A stretch of 34,300 nt of DNA from positions 1 through 34,300 of IMG/VR virus record IMGVR_UViG_3300011337_000588; one strand, given 5' to 3'. The notes beneath the pieces were generated by a model. It saw nothing but the letters and a program-made list of their open reading frames with translations. It did no database searches and was not told the DNA's origin. This document shows, one piece after another, positions 1 through 33,517 of the stretch; position 1 is the first letter of the stretch; every line of letters starts with the position of its first letter. The stretch comes from a virus. Its lineage: Duplodnaviria; Caudoviricetes. A program made the position numbers and the translations under genes.

Positions 1-121
1 ATTTTCGTACCGCTGTAGTGATCGGAATGCCGGTGTTGTACGATTTATCTACGACGGCCACCTTGAGATACTCGGGTAGATTCGTTACGACTTGCGGCCT
101 GCTGGTGTAATGCCTTGCCAT
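1..121 (-). CDS. Partial small protein, possible ribbon-helix-helix (Arc/CopG-like) DNA-binding protein; runs off the window edge
   Basis: Not in the ORF track. Minus strand reads AAAGGA-N9-ATG(121), then MARHYTSRPQVVTNLPEYLKVAVVDKSYNTGIPITTAVRK...; the strand-LP-helix-G-helix pattern resembles RHH proteins. Confidence 0.4.
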   Translation of the reverse strand, partial: MARHYTSRPQVVTNLPEYLKVAVVDKSYNTGIPITTAVRK

Positions 122-138
122 TTTCGGGAGTCCTTTCA

Positions 139-591
139 ATGCTAAAAATTGACCGTGATCCTCAAAATCTATGCCCTTGGTTTGCTGAACGTTTTTCCAA
201 TGCCCTTGCGGAATGCCAATCCCTTGGTTTCCGGGTATCTCTTTTCGAAGGCTACAGATCGCCCGAGAGGCAACAGGAACTTTACAATCAGGGCCGGGTA
301 ACGCGGGGTAAGATCGTTACTTATGCAAGACCCTTTCAATCGTGGCATCAATTTGGCCTCGCCGCTGACATCGCGTATCGCACCCCGGACGGTCAGTGGA
401 CATGGGACGGGGATTTCATCCGACTCGCCCCGATATTTCAAAGTCACGGTCTGCAATGGTACGGCCCCGGTGATGCAGGCCATTACGAGTGCCCGGCCTC
501 GTCCCTCCAGTCCGCCAAAACCTTGCTCGATTCTGTTGGACTTGAGGGAGTTTGGTCGGACGCTCTTAAAAGGGAATCTCATCGAGTGTAG
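139..591 (+). CDS. M15-family (L-Ala-D-Glu-type) peptidase, probable endolysin
   Basis: Motifs EGYRSPERQQELYNQGR, SWHQFGLAADI (SxHxxGxAxD) and DAGHYE. GGGAG RBS precedes ATG at 139. Confidence 0.85.
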   Translation: MLKIDRDPQNLCPWFAERFSNALAECQSLGFRVSLFEGYRSPERQQELYNQGRVTRGKIVTYARPFQSWHQFGLAADIAYRTPDGQWTWDGDFIRLAPIFQSHGLQWYGPGDAGHYECPASSLQSAKTLLDSVGLEGVWSDALKRESHRV

Positions 592-946
592 CGGTCTGAT
601 CGCGAATAGCGGCAGACGGGTCCCCCAATGATCCTCTAGCGTCTTTTTTGTCGGTGCCGGATTCAGTTATCCCAAGTTTAAGAGCGATTTTGTCCCAAAC
701 AACGCTCTGCTTTTCACTGATTCGGCCAGAAATATTGAATTGTTCAATTAAACTGTGAAGAAAATTTTGTTCCCATGGCGTGGGATTCAAAGTTAAAGCC
801 TGTTCAGCGGTCGAGACACTAAAGCTCGCCAAGACATCATCATGCCAAGAGACATGAGACAGAGTATCGATATCGATTGTGCGGCCAGTGTAACTTGCCC
901 CGTCAATGGACCAAACGCCTTTAATGCGGTGTGTACGATTTTTCAT
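566..946 (-). CDS. Hypothetical phage protein with a WExxF...SxKQ motif and an SSB-like acidic tail (LDEIPF)
   Basis: TGGAGGGC RBS before ATG at 946; own putative promoter. Confidence 0.7.
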   Translation of the reverse strand: MKNRTHRIKGVWSIDGASYTGRTIDIDTLSHVSWHDDVLASFSVSTAEQALTLNPTPWEQNFLHSLIEQFNISGRISEKQSVVWDKIALKLGITESGTDKKDARGSLGDPSAAIRDQTATLDEIPF

Positions 947-973
947 GTTGCCCTCCATTTGCTGTTCAAAAGC

Positions 974-1001
974 AATATACACGGGTGATCGAAAAGCACA
1001 A
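974..1001 (-). promoter_or_regulatory. Putative sigma70 promoter for the 946..566 gene
   Basis: TTGTGC-N16-TATATT on the minus strand. Confidence 0.4.
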
Positions 1002-1019
1002 TAGATATTTGAATGATAC

Positions 1020-1048
1020 TTGTAATTTTGTTATCGGCGTGAAATAAT
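1020..1048 (+). promoter_or_regulatory. Putative sigma70 promoter of the sRNA
   Basis: TTGTAA(1020-1025)-N17-AATAAT(1043-1048), with extended -10 TG at 1040-1041. Confidence 0.6.
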
Positions 1049-1052
1049 TAAG

Positions 1053-1120
1053 GTCTTCTGTCGCCCTCCAAGCCAAGAAGGCAATGCCCCGATAGGAAAC
1101 TATTGGGGTGTTGTTTTTTT
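1053..1120 (+). ncRNA. Candidate trans-acting anti-Shine-Dalgarno sRNA (two hairpins)
   Basis: Stem GUCUUCU/AGAAGGC encloses a 16-nt loop containing GCCCUCCAAG, complementary to the early-gene RBS. Followed by a GAAA-loop terminator and U7; no ORF. Confidence 0.7.
1082..1120 (+). terminator. Intrinsic terminator of the sRNA
   Basis: CAATGCCCCGATAG-GAAA-CTATTGGGGTGTTG-T7; the G-U pairs work only on the + strand. Confidence 0.8.
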
Positions 1121-1134
1121 AAGCAAACAACAAA

Positions 1135-1314
1135 CTAACTGTTGGGATTATCGAGGTGCCTGCGAAAGTCGCCAAGACGTTCGGCGAATTCTTTCTTCCT
1201 CAACTTGTCGGCAATTTTGCGAGCGGCCTTGCGCTCTCGTTGGTCAAGTTTAAGACGCTTTGTTTTAGTTTTTACTTCCAAGTGAAGTCTCTCTCTAAAA
1301 TTAAGTAATGTCAT
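1135..1314 (-). CDS. Small Lys/Arg-rich hypothetical protein (start uncertain: ATG 1314 or TTG 1428)
   Basis: Helical basic C-terminus KRLKLDQRERKAARKIADKLRKKEFAER; weak RBS. Confidence 0.45.
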   Translation of the reverse strand: MTLLNFRERLHLEVKTKTKRLKLDQRERKAARKIADKLRKKEFAERLGDFRRHLDNPNS

Positions 1315-1386
1315 GACATACACCAGCAAGCCAAATATTGATATACCTTGCGGCCCCCGGTCTTTTATTTTATCCTCCCAATTATT

Positions 1387-1930
1387 GGAGTGGACCGCCG
1401 ACTCCTGCGACAAGAATATCGCGAACAATCGGCTCTAGTCCGGGGAAATTTCTGCCCGGTAATCAAGTCAGGCTGCCAACAGCCCCGGACCAGTAGTGTG
1501 ATTAGGATGCCAGTCCGATGTGAGCAACGGGGTAATCTATTAGTAAACCACCTCATGCCCTTCGGATGCTCCAAAGTTACACTGTAAATTTCTGTGCGAG
1601 TGTCTTGAGCGTAAGGGATACAGCATGGGTCGTGAGGTAATGGCTCACGAGTACCGATGCGGCCGTACTTAATTAGATTGCTACGGAATCCAACACGCGA
1701 GCGGTGGAGCAATGTTCCACTACAGTCGGAGTTTTACTCAGTACTACGAAGTGCCGAGCCTTGTGGCCGACAGTATCCCAAGCTCAAGAGACAAGAGCAG
1801 ATCTGGTGTGTCTTTACATGATGTCATGTTTAATCATGGCTCCCGTTGGTCGCTGGAAGGTTCTTCTACAGTAGACTGAGTATGTGTAAAGGCAGCAAGG
1901 CTATCAGTCAGGCCCCGGCCCCCCAAGGCG
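1387..1930. ncRNA. Candidate large structured RNA (or structured ssDNA element)
   Basis: Many perfect helices including long-range ones (1603-1610/1782-1789, 1615-1621/1773-1779, 1438-1445/1483-1490, 1630-1636/1644-1650); no convincing ORF. Confidence 0.45.
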
Positions 1931-1988
1931 GTTATGCTTGTGATGATGGTTAGGGGTTCTATTGCTAAAATATAATAGGGGGGTAAAC

Positions 1989-2444
1989 GTGAAAGATTAC
2001 TTCGTAGGGGTGGACCCCGGTAAGTCAGGCGGAATTGTCGTCTTGGATCATCAGGGAACTATTGTTGCGGCCTGTACGATGCCCGATCATGTTGGGGGAT
2101 TGATTGCAGTCGCTCGGCTCTATCAGAAGGCTCACTGGACAATTGAGAAGGTCGGTCCGGTATTTATGTCGTCGGCTAAGAGTGCTTTCACGTTCGGCTA
2201 TGGTGCCGGTCAGATTGAGGGAGTGCTGTCGGCTTTGGATATCAAGTTTGCCATGGTTCCACCAAAGAATTGGCAGAAGGCAATGCTCGAAGGGGTAGCG
2301 GGGGAATTACCACCAAAGGAGCGGGCATACCGATCGGCTTACCGTCTGTTTCCGGGGTTCCGGTGGCCGGTAGTAGGCAAGAAAGCCCATGACGGGATTG
2401 TGGACGCTGCCTTGATTGCAGCCTATGCCCTTAAAGGAGCGTAG
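1989..2444 (+). CDS. ruvC: RuvC-like Holliday junction resolvase
   Basis: VGVDPGKSGG, TIEKV, SAFTFGYGAG, VPPKNWQK and HDGIVDAALIA motifs; GTG start after GGGGG. Confidence 0.85.
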   Translation: MKDYFVGVDPGKSGGIVVLDHQGTIVAACTMPDHVGGLIAVARLYQKAHWTIEKVGPVFMSSAKSAFTFGYGAGQIEGVLSALDIKFAMVPPKNWQKAMLEGVAGELPPKERAYRSAYRLFPGFRWPVVGKKAHDGIVDAALIAAYALKGA

Positions 2445-2488
2445 AAGCCCCCACAGTGGCCGGGACAGCCACCGGGGGTATCTGGGTA

Positions 2489-2716
2489 TCATATGTTCAT
2501 CATGGGGGATTTACGGGCATCCAAGATCAACTTGATGGCTGACTTCAGGTCGATGTCCTCGATAAGACCGTATGGGTCGAGGTTACGCCTGCGGTTGGAG
2601 AATTGCCGGTCAAGGGTTGCCGCTAACATCTCAGCAGCTTCTACGATATCGGGAAGGGTGTCCTCAATCAGTGTAACCATGTCTGCCACCGTTTTCTGTG
2701 TATGATAATTGAGCAT
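2489..2716 (-). CDS. Hypothetical protein
   Basis: Start overlaps the stop of the upstream gene (TAATG). Confidence 0.6.
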   Translation of the reverse strand: MLNYHTQKTVADMVTLIEDTLPDIVEAAEMLAATLDRQFSNRRRNLDPYGLIEDIDLKSAIKLILDARKSPMMNI

Positions 2717-2895
2717 TAGTGTGTCGCTTCCGGGAAAAGAGTATACGCAAGATCGTCTGATATGAAGTGCCTGCCTGTTGGATCTTCACCAAAAAAGTGA
2801 CACGCAAGTTGGAAACGATCGTAGAACGTGTATGCGCTTGAATCCTCTCTCCAGATATACTCTCCACCCTCTGTCCTGATAGTAACTGAAACCAT
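2716..2895 (-). CDS. Small early-gene hypothetical protein
   Basis: Shared GCCTTGGAGGGC RBS before ATG 2895. Confidence 0.7.
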   Translation of the reverse strand: MVSVTIRTEGGEYIWREDSSAYTFYDRFQLACHFFGEDPTGRHFISDDLAYTLFPEATH

Positions 2896-2901
2896 TGTTT
2901 T

Positions 2902-2963
2902 GCCCTCCAAGGCTGTTATTTGCTGACATTGATTATAGTATTTGAATAGATATTAGGTGTCAA
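2902..2963 (-). promoter_or_regulatory. Early cassette promoter plus shared RBS leader
   Basis: TTGACA(2963-2958)-N17-TACTAT(2940-2935); GCCTTGGAGGGC at 2913-2902. Confidence 0.8.
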
Positions 2964-3147
2964 TGCCTGATTTGCGGTCGAAAGTCATAAATGAGAACCA
3001 TGAAGAACCCATGTAAAAATCATACTTAAGGATTCCCCATGCCTGTCGTTTCTCGCACCAGTTTAGAGAAAACTCGCCATCAGGATCGGCGTGTAAACGA
3101 GCCAAGCGATTAAATTCTAAAAGGATTGCTAACGATGGTGTAAGCAC
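2953..3147 (-). CDS. Small early-gene hypothetical protein
   Basis: GCCTTGGAGGGA RBS before GTG 3147. Confidence 0.65.
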   Translation of the reverse strand: MLTPSLAILLEFNRLARLHADPDGEFSLNWCEKRQAWGILKYDFYMGSSWFSFMTFDRKSGIDT

Positions 3148-3151
3148 GTTT

Positions 3152-3214
3152 CCCTCCAAGGCGTGCCGTTATTGGCTTGCGTCAATTACTATTTGAATAT
3201 AATATGCATGTCAA
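3152..3214 (-). promoter_or_regulatory. Early cassette promoter plus shared RBS leader
   Basis: TTGACA(3214-3209)-N17-TAGTAA; hairpin GCC-AATAAC-GGC; GCCTTGGAGGG at 3162-3152. Confidence 0.8.
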
Positions 3215-3235
3215 CAAATAATTTGGCGACAGGGT

Positions 3236-3260
3236 AAAAAAAAAGCCCCGGATGGGGCTT
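3236..3260 (-). terminator. Intrinsic terminator after ardC
   Basis: AAGCCCC-ATCC-GGGGCTT followed by a T-tract on the minus strand. Confidence 0.8.
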
Positions 3261-3265
3261 GGTGA

Positions 3266-4129
3266 CTAACCGGCAAGGCATCCATCTTTGGGGACCCTTT
3301 GCAGGGATACAAGTAACTCGCAGGCTTTTTGTGCCGCCGATGCTACCGATACCAAAGCCCTGCTATCTTTCTTGGCAGCGGCAAGCCATGACGACAGGTA
3401 AGCAGCAGAGTTTTTCATGGAATGAAATTCGGTGTTGGTCGCAGCGGCAAAGAAACAAGTAGCAAGCTCTGCGGTAAGCTCCTCAATAGCGTAGGCATGG
3501 GAACCAAAGCGGTTACCGAAGTCACGTTTTAAGCGTGATTCGTGACCTGTCCAGTGTGACGCTTCATGCACTAGGGTACTGAAATAGGCGGAATGACTAA
3601 CGAATGATGACGGGAGAGGTAAAGTCACAGCGTCAAAGCCGGGAGAGTAGTATGCTGTCGCGGTATCGGCGTGCGTTAGTTTCATGCCCTCAAAAAAGAA
3701 ACCGGGTTTAATCGGGCAAAGGGTAGTCGGCTCGATCACGTCCGGGGTATCGCAGGCGAGGGTAGTTTGATCAATGTTGAACACGGTATAGTAGCGGGCC
3801 ATGATAGACTTCTTATCCTCGCCCGCATCATTCTCGTATTCGTTGATCTTAAAGAAAATAATCGGGGTACCCTTGGAACCGGGAAGGACAGAGCCACCTT
3901 CAGCGGCAATTTGCTTGAACGTGCCCCAGAGGGGCGAACGAAAGCCCATTTTCGAGCGTTGGAAGGATAGGACAAGGTTATTGATCCCGTTGTAAGCACG
4001 TCCCGACAGGTTGACGGGCTTGCCGGATGCCCGAGCTGACTCGACAAGGTAATGTTCCCACTGGCCTGCACCTGATTCGAGAATCTCAATGATCTGCTTG
4101 GTAACGATCTCATATACGTCGATCTTCAT
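3266..4129 (-). CDS. ardC: ArdC-family antirestriction / ssDNA-binding protein
   Basis: N-terminal motifs YNGIN, WGTFKQ, GxKG and YYTVFNIDQ; C-terminal metallopeptidase-like HEASHWTGHESRLKR...YAIEELTAEL. Confidence 0.9.
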   Translation of the reverse strand: MKIDVYEIVTKQIIEILESGAGQWEHYLVESARASGKPVNLSGRAYNGINNLVLSFQRSKMGFRSPLWGTFKQIAAEGGSVLPGSKGTPIIFFKINEYENDAGEDKKSIMARYYTVFNIDQTTLACDTPDVIEPTTLCPIKPGFFFEGMKLTHADTATAYYSPGFDAVTLPLPSSFVSHSAYFSTLVHEASHWTGHESRLKRDFGNRFGSHAYAIEELTAELATCFFAAATNTEFHSMKNSAAYLSSWLAAAKKDSRALVSVASAAQKACELLVSLQRVPKDGCLAG

Positions 4130-4134
4130 TGTTT

Positions 4135-4194
4135 GCCCTCCAAGGCTGCCGTTAGTGGCAAGTAATTAGTATTTAATTGTGATAAGAGTGTCAA
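4135..4194 (-). promoter_or_regulatory. Early cassette promoter plus shared RBS leader (ardC)
   Basis: TTGACA(4194-4189)-N17-TACTAA; hairpin TGCC-ACTAAC-GGCA; GCCTTGGAGGGC at 4146-4135. Confidence 0.8.
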
Positions 4195-4208
4195 GGGGAA
4201 AAGTAGGC

Positions 4209-4233
4209 AAAAAAAAGCCCCCGAGAGGGGGGG
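4209..4233 (-). terminator. Intrinsic terminator
   Basis: CCCCC-TCTC-GGGGG-C-T8 on the minus strand. Confidence 0.75.
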
Positions 4234-4240
4234 ATGGTGG

Positions 4241-4474
4241 TTAGTCGCGAACAAAGAGCCATTGTCCTTTAACTAGAACGTAACAGCTACCGCTGTTGCC
4301 ATAAATGCAACAGTAAACGCGGTACTTTCGTTTATTGCCGTTGAAAATTAACATGTGGTCGGTCGGGACTTTCATGCCGTAACCCATTTTTGATTGTCCG
4401 CGTCGCCAAGGCGTGATGATGGGATTTTTGATCAAAGTGTAATTCTCGGCGTAAGTAATGAGTGTGTTGGTCAC
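4241..4474 (-). CDS. Small early-gene hypothetical protein (GYGxKxPT...YRVYCxxYxNSG)
   Basis: Shared RBS before GTG 4474; flanked by a promoter and a terminator. Confidence 0.75.
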   Translation of the reverse strand: MTNTLITYAENYTLIKNPIITPWRRGQSKMGYGMKVPTDHMLIFNGNKRKYRVYCCIYGNSGSCYVLVKGQWLFVRD

Positions 4475-4479
4475 AGTTT

Positions 4480-4542
4480 GCCCTCCAAGGCGTGTCACTA
4501 ATTGACGAACTAATTAGTAATTAAATATCCATTGGGTGTCAA
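4480..4542 (-). promoter_or_regulatory. Early cassette promoter plus shared RBS leader
   Basis: TTGACA(4542-4537)-N17-TACTAA; hairpin GTCA-ATTAG-TGAC; GCCTTGGAGGGC at 4491-4480. Confidence 0.8.
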
Positions 4543-4644
4543 CAAGAAAAAGCGGGCAAGTGAAAATATTGGGACATATATACTTAATTAATATATACTA
4601 TCAAAATAGGGTAATGAAATTAGAGAGTTAGAGGTGTACCACAG

Positions 4645-4914
4645 ATGATGTTACCAATTCTAGCGATTTTTGTCGTGTTTAGCTTAATTTCTTGTTGCTT
4701 TCTATCAGGGATTGTGTGTTGGGATTTAGTTGAGAGGCGAAAGGTGGGCATCTTGCTCGCGGATGCCCGGGCTGAAATGAACGCGATCGCGCTTGCTAGT
4801 AATGAGAATAGTCAATCACTTTCGGTAGCCGTTGGGGAATTGCAAGAGCGTGTGCAGTCTCACGAGCTGCGACTATCGGGTGGCATCAGCAAGTCTGCCG
4901 TAATACGCCAATGA
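4645..4914 (+). CDS. Small membrane protein (N-terminal TM helix plus coiled coil)
   Basis: GAGGTG RBS; hydrophobic first ~27 aa. Confidence 0.65.
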   Translation: MMLPILAIFVVFSLISCCFLSGIVCWDLVERRKVGILLADARAEMNAIALASNENSQSLSVAVGELQERVQSHELRLSGGISKSAVIRQ

Positions 4915-4999
4915 AGGCCTCAAACGTCGATTCTGAGAGCCTTAACCGCATGGCAAGGGGATAGCCTAGGCAAGGCCCTTTTGTGCGTTTATAAAGGTG

Positions 5000-5029
5000 T
5001 TGACATATAGTATTTAAATGTGATATGAT
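5000..5029 (+). promoter_or_regulatory. Promoter of the packaging/structural operon
   Basis: TTGACA-N18-TATGAT with TG extension. Confidence 0.65.
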
Positions 5030-5062
5030 TAGGATTTGTTGTTTTACTCGGGGGGTGATTGC

Positions 5063-5719
5063 TTGGCAAAAAAGGGATGGCGGGGTGATCCGGCGAACAT
5101 AGGCAAGGGTCGGTTTAGCCAAGAATACCGTGATCAAAAGATTACGGTGAAGCGAGAGTTTGTTACCGCACTAGCTAACCTTGCGCATATGAACGTGGGA
5201 CAGATAGGTGCGGTAGCACAGAGCGAGGAATTACCAGCCCTACAGGTGTTGATGGGGAGGATCGTCCTCGACGCTATCGAGGGTGATAGTCACGCTCGGA
5301 CCATCTTGCTTGACCGCTTGTTCGGCAAGGTTGCGGATGCCGTCGACGTATCGCATAGCCTTGAGATGGATTCAGACTTGATGGGCGTGCCTGTCGATCA
5401 ACTAGTAGCAATCTTAGAATTACAACAGGGAGGCGGCAGGAGTGACGTATCACAGGAACATGACAAACGAAGAGCGTATGGCTTACCGGGAGAACCAGCT
5501 CAAGAACCCCAAGCCGGGGGAGTACCTACTAGGCTACGTGATCCCGCCACCGCACCTGAGAGGCCCGGAAGTGGGGACACCTGTGGACAACTCGGCTCTG
5601 ATGGCCAAGATCATCACGGGGGGGACGGGGGATATAAAGTCGCACCTATGGAAGTTAGGGACTCTCTATTGGAAGTTGGATTCGTTGCAGCAAAATATAA
5701 GGGAGACGCTCTTAAGTAA
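5063..5719 (+). CDS. Probable terminase small subunit (3' part overlaps terL)
   Basis: Lies before terL; GGGGGTG RBS then TTG; helical motifs AIEGDxxA and LLDRLFGK. Confidence 0.6.
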   Translation: MAKKGWRGDPANIGKGRFSQEYRDQKITVKREFVTALANLAHMNVGQIGAVAQSEELPALQVLMGRIVLDAIEGDSHARTILLDRLFGKVADAVDVSHSLEMDSDLMGVPVDQLVAILELQQGGGRSDVSQEHDKRRAYGLPGEPAQEPQAGGVPTRLRDPATAPERPGSGDTCGQLGSDGQDHHGGDGGYKVAPMEVRDSLLEVGFVAAKYKGDALK

Positions 5720-29498: not shown

Positions 29499-30299
29499 TT
29501 ATTCTACCGATCCCGCCACGATGTATCCAGCTTCCTCGCCAATTTTAGCGCAGCCAAACGGAACCAGTGAATAACCCTTATCGCCCCATTCTTCTCCCCA
29601 CGAATTAGCCATGATCCACTTGTCTTTGTCGGTCCACCCTACGAGTGTAACCATGTGATTTGTCGTCTTGCTCTTGCAGGCAGACGCCGGAAGCTCACCA
29701 GAGGTTCCGCCCCAACCATTGCCAGCGGCGACGGTCACGAATGAACTACCGTAATTATATATGGCGATTTTAATTTCTTCAGCCGTAGGCGACTTGTTAG
29801 CCGATCCAAGCAGCTTAACTTCAGCGGCCTTGGCATACTTGGGGGTTTTCTTACACTTCAGGTTAGACGCTTTGTACGGCCAGTGAGCCTCGTCGGTGAT
29901 CCCTGAGAGAAGGAAGTTAGCCGACTCCATGTAACCGCCGGAACACTTGGCGGCGTCCTTAGCGCAGGACACCATGTCTTGCTCGCTCAGGTCGAGAGGC
30001 TCGCCCTTTTGCTTGGACAGGTTAATTTCTAGGGCGCGAGTAGATGCAAAGGCCCAACATGAGCCGCAAGCTCCTTGGTCACGGATCGGCGGGTGCTTAA
30101 TAAATTTACGGGAATCATAATCAGCCGGAAGGTGATCGGCGGGAAGCTCTGCCATGGCATACTCAATCGGCTCGGCTGCTTTGGTGTGTCCCAAATATCC
30201 CGTAGCTTTGGGTCCGGCGATGGTGTCAATAACTTGGCGGTTATCACCCAAGGCAACGGTTGACGCCAAGAGCAAACAGAAAGACAGATATTTCAGCAT
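29499..30299 (-). CDS. Secreted papain-like (C1A) cysteine protease
   Basis: Signal peptide; QGACGSCWAF, NHMV and NSWG catalytic motifs; LSEQDMVSC. Confidence 0.92.
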   Translation of the reverse strand: MLKYLSFCLLLASTVALGDNRQVIDTIAGPKATGYLGHTKAAEPIEYAMAELPADHLPADYDSRKFIKHPPIRDQGACGSCWAFASTRALEINLSKQKGEPLDLSEQDMVSCAKDAAKCSGGYMESANFLLSGITDEAHWPYKASNLKCKKTPKYAKAAEVKLLGSANKSPTAEEIKIAIYNYGSSFVTVAAGNGWGGTSGELPASACKSKTTNHMVTLVGWTDKDKWIMANSWGEEWGDKGYSLVPFGCAKIGEEAGYIVAGSVE

Positions 30300-30555: not shown

Positions 30556-30978
30556 CTAATCCCCTTTAAGACGTTGTTTTAGCTGATACGTTCTAGCTAC
30601 AGCCTTGTCGGCGATACCTGAGTACAGTTGCCGGTCAGCCTCTCTAGGCAAATCCTTGCAGAGATCCTCTAAGGCAAGGATAAGCTCTCTCTCCATGGCA
30701 AGCATGGCCGACCACAGCTTGTCGTTTTCCTTGTCGGGAAGAACCATAACTAGGTCGGCGGCCTCGCCCCAATAGTTAAGGCTAAGGACATCTGCCCCGA
30801 AAAGGCCGATGAGCCTCTCGCTTGCGGCGTCCGCGTCAAGTTGTACGGCATCGTAAAAATTGGCGGCGGCCCCGTGATCGGAAAAGAAGGAACAACCAAC
30901 AACCTGATGATGGGTGTGAATGTAACCCATCTGGAGTGCCCGAAGTTTAACCACTATCTGGTATGCTTTAACTTTCAT
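30556..30978 (-). CDS. Dps/ferritin-like protein
   Basis: HTHHQVVG..FFSDH...FYD...AD...ERLIG follows the Dps ferroxidase helix pattern. Confidence 0.65.
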   Translation of the reverse strand: MKVKAYQIVVKLRALQMGYIHTHHQVVGCSFFSDHGAAANFYDAVQLDADAASERLIGLFGADVLSLNYWGEAADLVMVLPDKENDKLWSAMLAMERELILALEDLCKDLPREADRQLYSGIADKAVARTYQLKQRLKGD

Positions 30979-31445: not shown

Positions 31446-31682
31446 TTATCCATTTTCTTTCCCTTCGCCGGAACCGTTACCTCGACGCGTTCCTATGCCG
31501 TCGCCGTAACCATTTCCAACGACTTCGCCCCAACCGTAGCTGCCGCCTGCGCCAGAACCGGAACCGTGGCCGTTGCCGTTGCCGTGGTCGTAGCCAGAAC
31601 CGTCGCCGCCGCCGTAGCCGGTACCATCGAAGTAGTTAGAGCCGGAACCATCGCCAGTGCCTTTTCCGTAATCCTTATCCAT
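31446..31682 (-). CDS. Gly-rich protein 3 (78 aa)
   Basis: MDKDYGKG...; start lies within the ATGGATAA overlap. Confidence 0.65.
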   Translation of the reverse strand: MDKDYGKGTGDGSGSNYFDGTGYGGGDGSGYDHGNGNGHGSGSGAGGSYGWGEVVGNGYGDGIGTRRGNGSGEGKENG

Positions 31683-31896
31683 TCCCGCTCTCATCACAAT
31701 TGCCATAGCCGTAGTCGTTACCGAAATATGCGCCCTTACCTTCACCACAAAATTTTTCGCGAAGATTACCGCTTCCACAAGCGCATCCCATTCCATAATT
31801 ATTTAGTGATGAGGCCCCGTATCCAAATCCTTCTACAGATCCATAGCCAGTTATAACGCCGCTGCCGGTGCCGCAATACCTGTAATCTTTAACCAT
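31675..31896 (-). CDS. Gly-rich protein 2 (73 aa)
   Basis: MVKDYRYCG...; start lies within the ATGGTTAA overlap. Confidence 0.65.
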   Translation of the reverse strand: MVKDYRYCGTGSGVITGYGSVEGFGYGASSLNNYGMGCACGSGNLREKFCGEGKGAYFGNDYGYGNCDESGNG

Positions 31897-32125
31897 TCCC
31901 GTTTTCCTTGTGATTGCCGTAACCAGTACCGTACCCGGAACCGCTTTCGCAAAACCCGTAAGGAATCCCGTAACCGGAACCATGCCCACAATTTAATCCG
32001 GAACCGGAACCGTATCCGTTTCCATGTCCGTTATGTTTACGATTGCTGTCGCCTCGGCCATTTCCCATGCCAGTTTGGTCGCTGTTTCCGCATCCTGAAC
32101 TAAAACCGCAACCTAAGCCGACCAT
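31889..32125 (-). CDS. Gly-rich protein 1 (78 aa)
   Basis: GxG repeats; overlaps the 3' end of the upstream gene. Confidence 0.65.
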   Translation of the reverse strand: MVGLGCGFSSGCGNSDQTGMGNGRGDSNRKHNGHGNGYGSGSGLNCGHGSGYGIPYGFCESGSGYGTGYGNHKENGNG

Positions 32126-32454
32126 ACCGGAACCGAGTTAATTGATTTTCTTGCTTCTTCCGTTACTTGCAAAATTTCGCATACACCAAAAATTTCGTGA
32201 TCTTCCACAGCAACAGGGAACTTACACTCGCCCGGATTCTTAACGCCCTTTACGGAAAGCTCCGACAAGCTCGCGGCCCCGCTCCAGTACCAGAGACGGC
32301 GCGACGAATACATCAAGACAGTATTTCCTTTACGCTCGCCCAGTTCACCAAAGAACACGCCAGCCTCGGCGGAACGAACAATTACCCACGGGTGCTCGCT
32401 CTTTTCTTTTTCCGCGTGATACCGAACGCCGTTCACCAAAATGATGTCATCCAT
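32113..32454 (-). CDS. DUF6948-like phage protein
   Basis: VIVRS..AGVFFG...RRLWYWSGAASLSELS..GV...CKF; GAGGAG RBS before ATG 32454. Confidence 0.7.
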   Translation of the reverse strand: MDDIILVNGVRYHAEKEKSEHPWVIVRSAEAGVFFGELGERKGNTVLMYSSRRLWYWSGAASLSELSVKGVKNPGECKFPVAVEDHEIFGVCEILQVTEEARKSINSVPVWSA

Positions 32455-32455
32455 T

Positions 32456-32614
32456 TTATTTCTCCTCGGTCTGCAAGACGATTTCGCCGTCAAAGTAAAA
32501 TCCCGCACCGCGCAGGAACTCCGTAAACCTCTGCAAAACTTCGACCAAGTTGGATGCCTCGATTTGGGTTTCTGTTATGAAACTTTGTTCTTCTGCACAA
32601 AAAGTCATTTTCAT
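32456..32614 (-). CDS. Small hypothetical protein (FLRGAGF motif)
   Basis: GGAG RBS; ATGA overlap. Confidence 0.6.
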   Translation of the reverse strand: MKMTFCAEEQSFITETQIEASNLVEVLQRFTEFLRGAGFYFDGEIVLQTEEK

Positions 32615-33105
32615 GTTGTCTCCAGTAACGAGTAAAAAGGTTCCAGCTCTCGGTATCTCAAATTGAAACAATCTATTGTAAAAACAAAATCACCGTCTCT
32701 ATCCCCCTTGTTGGCTTTTCGAGACAGGTCTTTGAAGTCGTTTACATCCATCCATCCCATGAGCCAGCCAAAGTCATACGATTTCAGTACCCTTGCAAAA
32801 ACGTAACGGTCAGCTCTTTGCTTTGCGTTGTATGCGGCCACATGACAATTAAAATCTAAACTTGGGAACACCGTGGTCTGGACTGTTTTGATTTCTATTT
32901 TTGATCCAAGATAATTGATGTCGTGCTGATAGGTGTTTTCCGAAAAGGAGCCGGGAAATGTCTTTAAGAACATTTCTTCTCCAAGGAACCCGGCTAGGTT
33001 GCCCTTCCCTCCAAGGATTGAATGTTTCAACGAACCAAGGTCGTCTGCCTTACGCTTGGCCCGTTGAAGCATTTCATCGTCAATCAAAACCTCAACGGCA
33101 AACAA
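32611..33105 (-). CDS. PD-(D/E)xK-like nuclease-fold protein
   Basis: GFLGE...HDI...IEIKT motif arrangement. Confidence 0.55.
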   Translation of the reverse strand: MFAVEVLIDDEMLQRAKRKADDLGSLKHSILGGKGNLAGFLGEEMFLKTFPGSFSENTYQHDINYLGSKIEIKTVQTTVFPSLDFNCHVAAYNAKQRADRYVFARVLKSYDFGWLMGWMDVNDFKDLSRKANKGDRDGDFVFTIDCFNLRYRELEPFYSLLETT

Positions 33106-33339
33106 TTAATCCATCACTGTCTGAAGTGAGATTTCAGGTGCAGCCGGGGCATATATATTTAGCTCGCGGCCATTAACCTCAACGTGAGTAAAGTCTGTGT
33201 CGGGAGAAGGGAAGGTGTAGCCAGATATCCCGGCCCCTTCTACGATTTCGACGTCCCCAATACGGCCATTAATTACTTGACTGCCCTTCGGTGCCGTCAG
33301 CAGGCTCGCCGCCACTATCGTGCTCAGGATTGTCGCCAT
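33106..33339 (-). CDS. Small protein with a signal-like N-terminus
   Basis: TTGGAGG RBS. Confidence 0.6.
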   Translation of the reverse strand: MATILSTIVAASLLTAPKGSQVINGRIGDVEIVEGAGISGYTFPSPDTDFTHVEVNGRELNIYAPAAPEISLQTVMD

Positions 33340-33517
33340 TTGTCTTTTCCTCCAAAAAAGAATTACTTACGTTAATGTTTTTCACTTCTCGAAAAAACTC
33401 TATGATTTTTTCTTTCATGATTTCTTCGTCATACTCGCAGTCAAGCACAACGTCCGGACCATATTTATCGAGCACCCACTTAGTCCAAGCCTTAAATTCT
33501 TTTTTGGTTGCCTTCAC
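33269..33517 (-). CDS. Hypothetical protein
   Basis: AGGGGGG RBS before GTG 33517. Confidence 0.55.
   Translation of the reverse strand: MKATKKEFKAWTKWVLDKYGPDVVLDCEYDEEIMKEKIIEFFREVKNINVSNSFLEEKTNGDNPEHDSGGEPADGTEGQSSN

Follow-up and report, generated by a model that had tools for sequence, protein, structure and literature searches.

In phage early-to-late switches, proteins are usually given the credit. Several described systems that feature a trans-acting RNA or a repeated early element are relevant here. The c4 RNA of phages P1 and P7 is a trans-acting phage antisense RNA of ~77 nt that targets the antirepressor (ant) mRNA (PMC12197685). In Staphylococcus aureus, RsaE binds mRNAs through an unpaired UCCC-type motif and blocks formation of the initiation complex independently of Hfq (PMC2790875). 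SviR of the PLE satellites is a trans-acting sRNA that lowers translation of phage mRNA (10.1101/2022.04.08.487710). Cluster K mycobacteriophages carry the 13-bp SAS repeat, with 11-19 copies at non-structural genes, the function of which was left open in 2011; K1 phages have one reversed copy without a gene start, and the same text contrasts SAS with stoperators and leaves open whether its partner is protein or RNA (PMC3203893). The PeSL elements of T4-type phages combine repeated strong sigma70-like early promoters and stem-loop terminators with non-essential genes (PMC2839356).

The window, by which we mean the whole 34.3-kb stretch of DNA analyzed, is an entire virus record present in aquatic runs, riverine ones included. 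Its genes code for a lysin, resolvase, ArdC, terminase, P22-like portal, capsid, RecT and a C1 peptidase. This gene set points to a podovirus-like phage, the genome of which is probably incomplete here. Among named matches to the terminase, the best lies in a Silvanigrella prophage (34.5% identity), whose top ribosome-binding site (RBS) 7-mer is unlike that of the window; the terminase also gives a 43% match to one contig in a Phycisphaerales MAG. Terminase-based searches returned 79 viral, 73 metagenome and one genome loci. One distinct relative, contig L003 (terminase 75% identical), covers the locus discussed here; the contigs of the close relatives L086-L088, L095, L098 and L110 end short of it. 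The minus strand also encodes a papain-family (C1) cysteine peptidase (29499-30299; E 8.6e-41), an unusual phage cargo with a 32% relative in L024, a Dps-like (ferritin-family) protein (30556-30978) with a weak NF052461 match below the cut-off (E 2.4e-6), and short Gly/Ser/Tyr-rich repeat ORFs clustered beside DUF6948 (31446-32508).

Early genes of the window share an extended RBS. The preliminary description had named CTTGGAGGGC as the RBS of the genes starting at 2895, 4129 (ArdC) and 4474, and exact copies lie upstream of all three. The 10-mer occurs exactly four times in the window, always on the minus strand (1063-1072, 2902-2911, 4135-4144 and 4480-4489). Allowing one mismatch gives eight matches against 1.89 expected, a number that none of 100 shuffles reaches. 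The partial matches are likewise as described, with 9/10 positions for the gene starting at 3147, 8 nt for that at 946 and 7 nt for that at 33339, and a further 9/10 copy, absent from the earlier account, lies within an ORF at 33006-33015. The early cassettes are laid out as TTGACA-N17-TA(C/G)TA(A/T), leader, CTTGGAGGG and start codon. Their predicted promoters, all on the minus strand, are TTGACA-N17-TACTAT at 2935-2963 and three that belong to repeat family D6, namely TTGACA-N17-TAGTAA at 3186-3214 and TTGACA-N17-TACTAA at both 4166-4194 (ardC) and 4514-4542. The final -10 T is missing from three of the four, and terminators (3243-3260, 4218-4234) lie immediately upstream of two of them. The TT preceding GGAGG has no possible pairing with the canonical 16S tail. 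It nonetheless stands before start-associated GGAGG at 5/9 sites in the window and 7/11 in L003, versus 14/96 in distant phage loci, and YTTGGAGG followed by a start codon occurs six times in the L003 record, against 0-2 per record in 35 others. Cassettes of the close relatives retain the YTTGGAGG tag.

Within the cassette region (2895-4592), the points at which relatives' contigs part from the window coincide exactly with the boundaries of cassettes (2895, 3161 and 4126-4224), which is consistent with gene shuffling among cassettes. An AT-rich near-palindrome, ATTYAAATA, recurs in the window at 1005-1014, 2938-2949, 3189-3200 and 5010-5019, and reads AATAGCTATT in L003 (positions 2588, 3546 and 3888) and L087. 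It overlaps early -10 elements and is also found in a late promoter near 5000-5029 and just upstream of the -35 of the predicted small RNA described below. This candidate operator could couple the early promoters to the small RNA.

The fourth exact copy of the tag, at 1063-1072, has no gene behind it. As had been claimed, no start follows: there is no ATG, GTG or TTG within 25 nt, and near-cognate codons at a spacer of 16-24 open frames of just 4-24 codons. On the plus strand the copy falls within a predicted ORF-less small RNA of ~66-68 nt (1053-1120), in which start codons open frames of at most 11 codons. Two abutting hairpins are predicted, with a fold z-score of -4.6 on the plus and -2.6 on the minus strand. 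The seed, GCCCUCCAAG (1063-1072, plus strand), is antisense to the early RBS, and its letters CCUCCAA are predicted to be unpaired (p 0.98-1.0). It is enclosed by a 5' stem, CUUCU/AGAAG (1055-1080, plus strand; p ~0.7). The 7-bp stem and 16-nt loop proposed earlier turn out to be a near-optimal alternative to this fold: the stem is stable over 5 bp (1055-1059/1076-1080), positions 1081-1082 mostly lengthen the terminator, and CCUCCAA forms a 7-nt loop that two inner G-C pairs close. For an RNA starting at or before 1052, the minimum free energy structure instead pairs AGAAG with the U tail and leaves the seed mostly open. Only 17 of 2000 random arms equal the pairing of the 5' arm.

Directly 3' of the seed hairpin lies a predicted intrinsic terminator with a GAAA tetraloop and U7 (1081-1120, plus strand); a consensus scan missed it, and a separate scan found it at -22.6 kcal/mol, in agreement with the original reading. 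G-U pairs and the U tail favour the plus strand in both the window and L003. Upstream, the match to a sigma70-type promoter, TTGTAA-N17-AATAAT with extended TG (1020-1048, plus strand), is real (9/12, TG present), but such matches are no more frequent than chance predicts (7 vs 6.8 expected in 1-5200). From composition, the chance expectation per phage is 0.0003 for the 10-mer near a window terminator and ~0.02 for the 7-mer, both computed post hoc. A single metatranscriptome contig spans 954-1184 and so runs past both predicted ends, contigs being unable to show ends, strand or level; runs X13 and X14 have no coverage of the locus. Between the small RNA and a large non-coding element, the minus strand holds an ORF for a basic, helical-looking protein of 59 aa (1135-1314), which has no family match and is missing at the matching place in L003.

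The L003 locus occupies the same position as that of the window, upstream of a shared non-coding element and the resolvase. Its first 80 bases contain TGA, then 24 nt (25 in the window) and then CCTCCAAG, which lies in the loop of a hairpin that directly adjoins a terminator with a U tail, and L003:17-82 (~65 nt, z -5.4) is predicted to adopt a two-hairpin layout like that of the window. The L003 seed is GAGCCUCCAAG, and the letters CUCCAA of its loop are predicted to be unpaired at 0.98 or above. The promoter TGA and the A at -11 are kept; the contig begins too late to show the -35. Stems and terminator share no recognizable sequence between L003 and the window, and a MAFFT alignment left the two RNAs out of structural register. 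The L003 5' arm is no better than random, with 462 of 2000 arms pairing equally well.

Loop and RBS change together. The six early RBSs of L003 read YTTGGAGG(C/T), one G fewer than in the window, and the loop has one C fewer, so that GCCCUCC faces GGAGGGC in the window and GCCUCC faces GGAGGC/T in L003. The co-variation between loop and RBS that the preliminary description proposed to look for in relatives is therefore present, across two distinct lineages, the window and L003. The early sites of L003 differ from those of the window beyond the YTTGGAGG core and are thus not recent copies. Since the tag is enriched in the window and L003 and kept in the close relatives, tag and loop co-occur in one clade.

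A closer relative, ~90% identical and represented by contigs from four runs of four studies, has two listed substitutions in 1051-1120 versus nine substitutions and two indels in 1022-1050 (Fisher p 1.4e-5); measured against a background of 8-12%, the conservation of 1051-1120 is modest (p 0.07-0.007). Seed and terminator are unchanged and, read by eye, one stem-edge pair is broken. The promoter carries one deletion and one insertion that together keep the 17-nt spacing, and TG and the -11 A are kept as well, while the last -10 T is lost. Many alphaproteobacterial promoters also do without this T (PMC7703639), as do three of the four cassette promoters, so its loss counts only weakly against a promoter.

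Searches for further homologues added little. In line with the statement that the RNA belongs to no recognized family, Rfam gave no meaningful match to it: c4 was not matched at E≤5 in the window or at E≤10 in 600-2000, the RsaE, RNAIII and cuckoo/ar14 models had no match in the window, and the best overlap, Spot 42 (E 7.6; 15 bits vs a gathering score of 80), was dismissed as chance. ARAGORN found no tRNA or tmRNA, and none of 50,697 annotated phage records gave a blastn match to 1000-1960. Exact 19-mer matches in the viral contigs L001, L002 (= L203), L204, L205 and L206 lie inside coding regions of unrelated phages and were likewise attributed to chance. Among the more distant relatives no homologue of the small RNA was recognized. 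A scan of 157 sequences for CCTCC plus a terminator returned 18 rows; apart from those of the window and L003, the remaining 16 were put aside on inspection by eye. With a looser pattern, 19 distant genomes and the Silvanigrella prophage were scanned as controls, and 11 of these 20 had hits (18 rows), among them G026, where the top 7-mer was matched. The resolvase search recovered L003 again and one 36% match, and nothing else. We found no published description of such an anti-RBS switch in the literature covered by our search, which lay largely outside the subscription journals.

The large ORF-less element (~560 nt) lies at 1388-1955 (plus strand) in the window and at 99-650 in L003, where it is directly 3' of the small RNA's terminator. 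The two copies are 73.5% identical over the first 340 nt, with indels. Their consensus fold reaches -137 kcal/mol on the plus versus -89 on the minus strand, with 21 of 128 pairs of the plus-strand fold changed on both sides; the single folds have z-scores of -3.1 and -1.6. Upstream of the element, both phages have possible promoters of the form TTGCG-N17/18-TAnnnT. The element has no Rfam, tRNA/tmRNA or annotated-phage match, and L003 is the sole other carrier found. It is a candidate for an undescribed large phage RNA in the size range of ROOL.

Pairing between the small RNA and phage leaders was ranked by a seed-plus-accessibility calculation over 36 leaders of the window and 18 of L003, leaving out the window terS leader, the start of which is uncertain. 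The best seven of the 36 window leaders are those of ardC, the genes starting at 2895 and 4474, terL, and the genes starting at 946, 3147 and 33339, whereas 13 of the 36, major capsid among them, have no site. All predicted target sites are on the minus strand. The RBS of ardC (gene 3266-4129, site 4135-4144), encoding ArdcN and MPTase-PolyVal Pfam domains, pairs at 10/10 positions with -12.7 kcal/mol, joint first of 36, and equals that of the 59-aa gene starting at 2895 (2902-2911; 10/10, -12.7 kcal/mol). The RBS of the 77-aa gene starting at 4474 (4480-4489; phrog_3436, function unknown) also pairs at 10/10 (-12.1 kcal/mol). Shorter sites are predicted for the 64-aa gene starting at 3147 (3152-3160; 9 nt, -8.2 kcal/mol) and the divergent 126-aa gene starting at 946 (950-957; 8 nt, -8.3 kcal/mol), the product of which has four homologues at 61-92% identity and no informative family or atlas match. 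The RBS of the gene starting at 33339 (33349-33355; 7 nt) is a weak possible target, and the best predicted site of this gene is elsewhere, in its first codons.

In L003, six early leaders pair with the cognate RNA at -13.8 to -6.0 kcal/mol among the 18; late and other leaders pair too (terS -10.0, 5th of 18; g6364 -6.9; resolvase -6.6), and the early gene e1668 has no predicted site. The expectation that early genes would rank at the top is thus borne out for ardC and the genes at 2895 and 4474, but terL comes 4th of 36 in the window (-10.2 kcal/mol) and terS 5th of 18 in L003. When the RNAs are swapped in silico, all 10 of the 10 cassette leaders prove to pair more strongly with their cognate RNA, although two margins are just 0.4-0.5 kcal/mol and the deficit after the swap is partly the cost of opening the loop. 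The loop-RBS duplexes are computed at 8-11 bp and -17.6 to -22.5 kcal/mol for 11 early leaders, versus -9.3 to -10.7 for a 16S-type tail, i.e. about twice the strength of 16S pairing. The two-hairpin fold, the open loop and these duplexes are all computed predictions.

The tag, its start-less copy, the promoter cassettes, and their recurrence and co-variation in L003 can be read in the sequences themselves. Because the loop is an exact mirror of the phage's own early RBS tag in two phages, a small RNA that acts as a joint off switch for translation is likely, and we consider that 1053-1120 probably encodes a trans-acting anti-RBS RNA that would silence the early cassettes. Several results count against this reading: the layout was recovered in two distinct lineages only, the promoter match is at chance frequency, the L003 5' arm is no better than random, terminase leaders pair too, and the loose form of the pattern occurs in 11 of 20 control genomes. 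The original idea of a loop occluding a standardized early RBS has thereby gained comparative support (the L003 layout, the co-variation and the 10/10 cognate preference), although its specificity is not clean; the accompanying label of an anti-defence regulon fits ardC, but the other cassette genes match no named family. The host polymerase would transcribe a stable RNA of ~66 nt from the promoter, which would build up after DNA entry. Its open loop would nucleate on YTTGGAGG tags and exclude the 30S subunit. The strong cassettes (ardC and small genes of no known function) would be translated immediately, until enough RNA has built up to shut them down, so that the RNA would serve as a timer. 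If the phage persists in a carrier cell, this RNA would likewise keep an incoming sibling's early genes silent. We favour the timer, since no integrase or repressor was found in the 34.3 kb; the choice is a weak one because the contig is partial.

The tag copy might instead be the RBS of a deleted early cassette gene, left beside a two-way terminator that stops the minus-strand gene ending at 1135 and read-through from the plus-strand lysin gene. The orphan copy shares its strand with the true RBS copies, and common descent would make it co-vary with them; relatives differ by shuffled cassettes (with joints at cassette boundaries, as in PeSL shuffling; PMC2839356), and the terminator candidate of the lysin gene itself is weak (-10.8 kcal/mol). 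Some L003 leaders also have a hairpin immediately 5' of the RBS, and the L003 5' arm is not significant. Such a relic, however, would have to persist at one place in two phages with fully diverged flanks, and no cassette promoter is present upstream on the minus strand. The unusual pairing of the window 5' arm (17/2000), the seed retained in the ~90% relative and the G-U pairs favouring the plus strand also speak against a relic, and we regard descent from a lost gene as unlikely. A protein could also read the tag, as a DNA operator or a translational repressor site, with the orphan copy as operator of the divergent promoters or as a minus-strand decoy. Asymmetric oriented repeats near starts can bind proteins (PMC3203893), and all four exact copies have the same orientation. 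Yet the motif coincides with the Shine-Dalgarno (SD) sequence at the correct spacing, the cassettes carry the separate AT-rich near-palindrome suited to an operator role, and a DNA site has no need of flanking hairpins. The orphan GGAGG on the window minus strand is moreover predicted to be buried in a stem and would therefore make a poor decoy, which leaves a protein site, to our judgment, very unlikely.

The extent of the complementarity bears on whether the RNA is directed at the phage at all. The open core CCUCC is the anti-SD core of 16S rRNA, and a generic anti-SD RNA could act mainly against GGAGG-containing mRNAs of the host or of competitors, the match to early phage leaders being secondary. 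C-rich sRNAs such as RsaE hit many mRNAs in this manner (PMC2790875), and pairing extends to some late leaders. The loop, however, is also complementary to the phage-specific TT and to the additional G, and varies when they vary, and a silencer directed at the host would strike the phage's own early genes hardest. We therefore think it quite unlikely that the early-gene match is secondary, and continue with an RNA that targets the early cassettes.

The reversed SAS copy of the K1 phages offers a parallel. The right half of Adephagia holds 15 forward SAS copies and a single reversed one, the latter forming the predicted open loop of a long intergenic hairpin (L207:28659-28715; JF704105, ~58,660-58,715) that a second hairpin precedes. 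This hairpin region matches 146 phage records, and we picked eight further records from the divergent end of 25 among the matches listed. The reversed SAS core is predicted to be unpaired in 5/5 Anayavirus (K1-type) phages, on sequence-variable stems, these being five of the nine cluster K phages checked. At the corresponding place the other four (Hurricane, DarthP, TClif and Pixie) carry no reversed copy, and tags of this kind can therefore occur on their own; a stretch of TM4 likewise holds 10 forward copies and no reversed one. As the reversed copy sits in a conserved open loop of culturable phages, the idea is testable with standard genetics.

It is possible, and we propose it tentatively, that such barcode-and-reader switches evolved repeatedly in unrelated phages, this locus and the K1 SAS repeats being two examples. 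Early genes would share a private SD extension, an RNA with the mirror loop would shut the whole class off, and any gene newly recombined into a cassette would be captured automatically. If this is correct, an RNA of ~65 nt that reads a standardized RBS would give a phage a compact way to shut off translation across a whole regulon. It would also account for the conservation, in some phages, of RBS letters to which the ribosome is blind. Natural matched RNA/RBS pairs would also be possible parts for synthetic translational control.

How the locus compares with the described systems differs from one to the next. The window cassettes, like PeSL, combine a repeated strong sigma70 promoter with an adjacent terminator stem-loop; no antisense partner is described in the available part of the PeSL source, and the analogy covers the cassettes, not the orphan loop (PMC2839356). 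SviR, unlike the window RNA, is encoded by a satellite and acts against a helper phage, and also on satellite mRNAs (10.1101/2022.04.08.487710). As with SAS, an extended RBS repeat is found on non-structural genes and is conserved beyond 16S pairing. The two elements have no sequence homology: window leaders read CTTGGAGGGC and depart from the 13-bp SAS consensus, with the GGAG core alone in common (PMC3203893). The SAS orphan is reversed relative to the other copies, in a hairpin without a U-tailed terminator, whereas the window orphan faces as the others do. With the RsaE/RNAIII class the predicted fold shares an unpaired C-rich motif complementary to the SD, and we found no sequence relation to either RNA. 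Those RNAs are chromosomal with host targets, in contrast to the single loop matched to a private, phage-specific SD extension seen here. Like c4, the predicted loop pairs around the RBS of the phage's own mRNA (PMC12197685). In contrast to c4, the seed consists of the anti-SD itself, and pairing is predicted with five to six separate early cassettes, comprising ardC and unnamed small genes, with no antirepressor among the 44 window proteins scanned. By analogy, the small RNA would thus work like c4 and the RsaE class while being a member of neither family.
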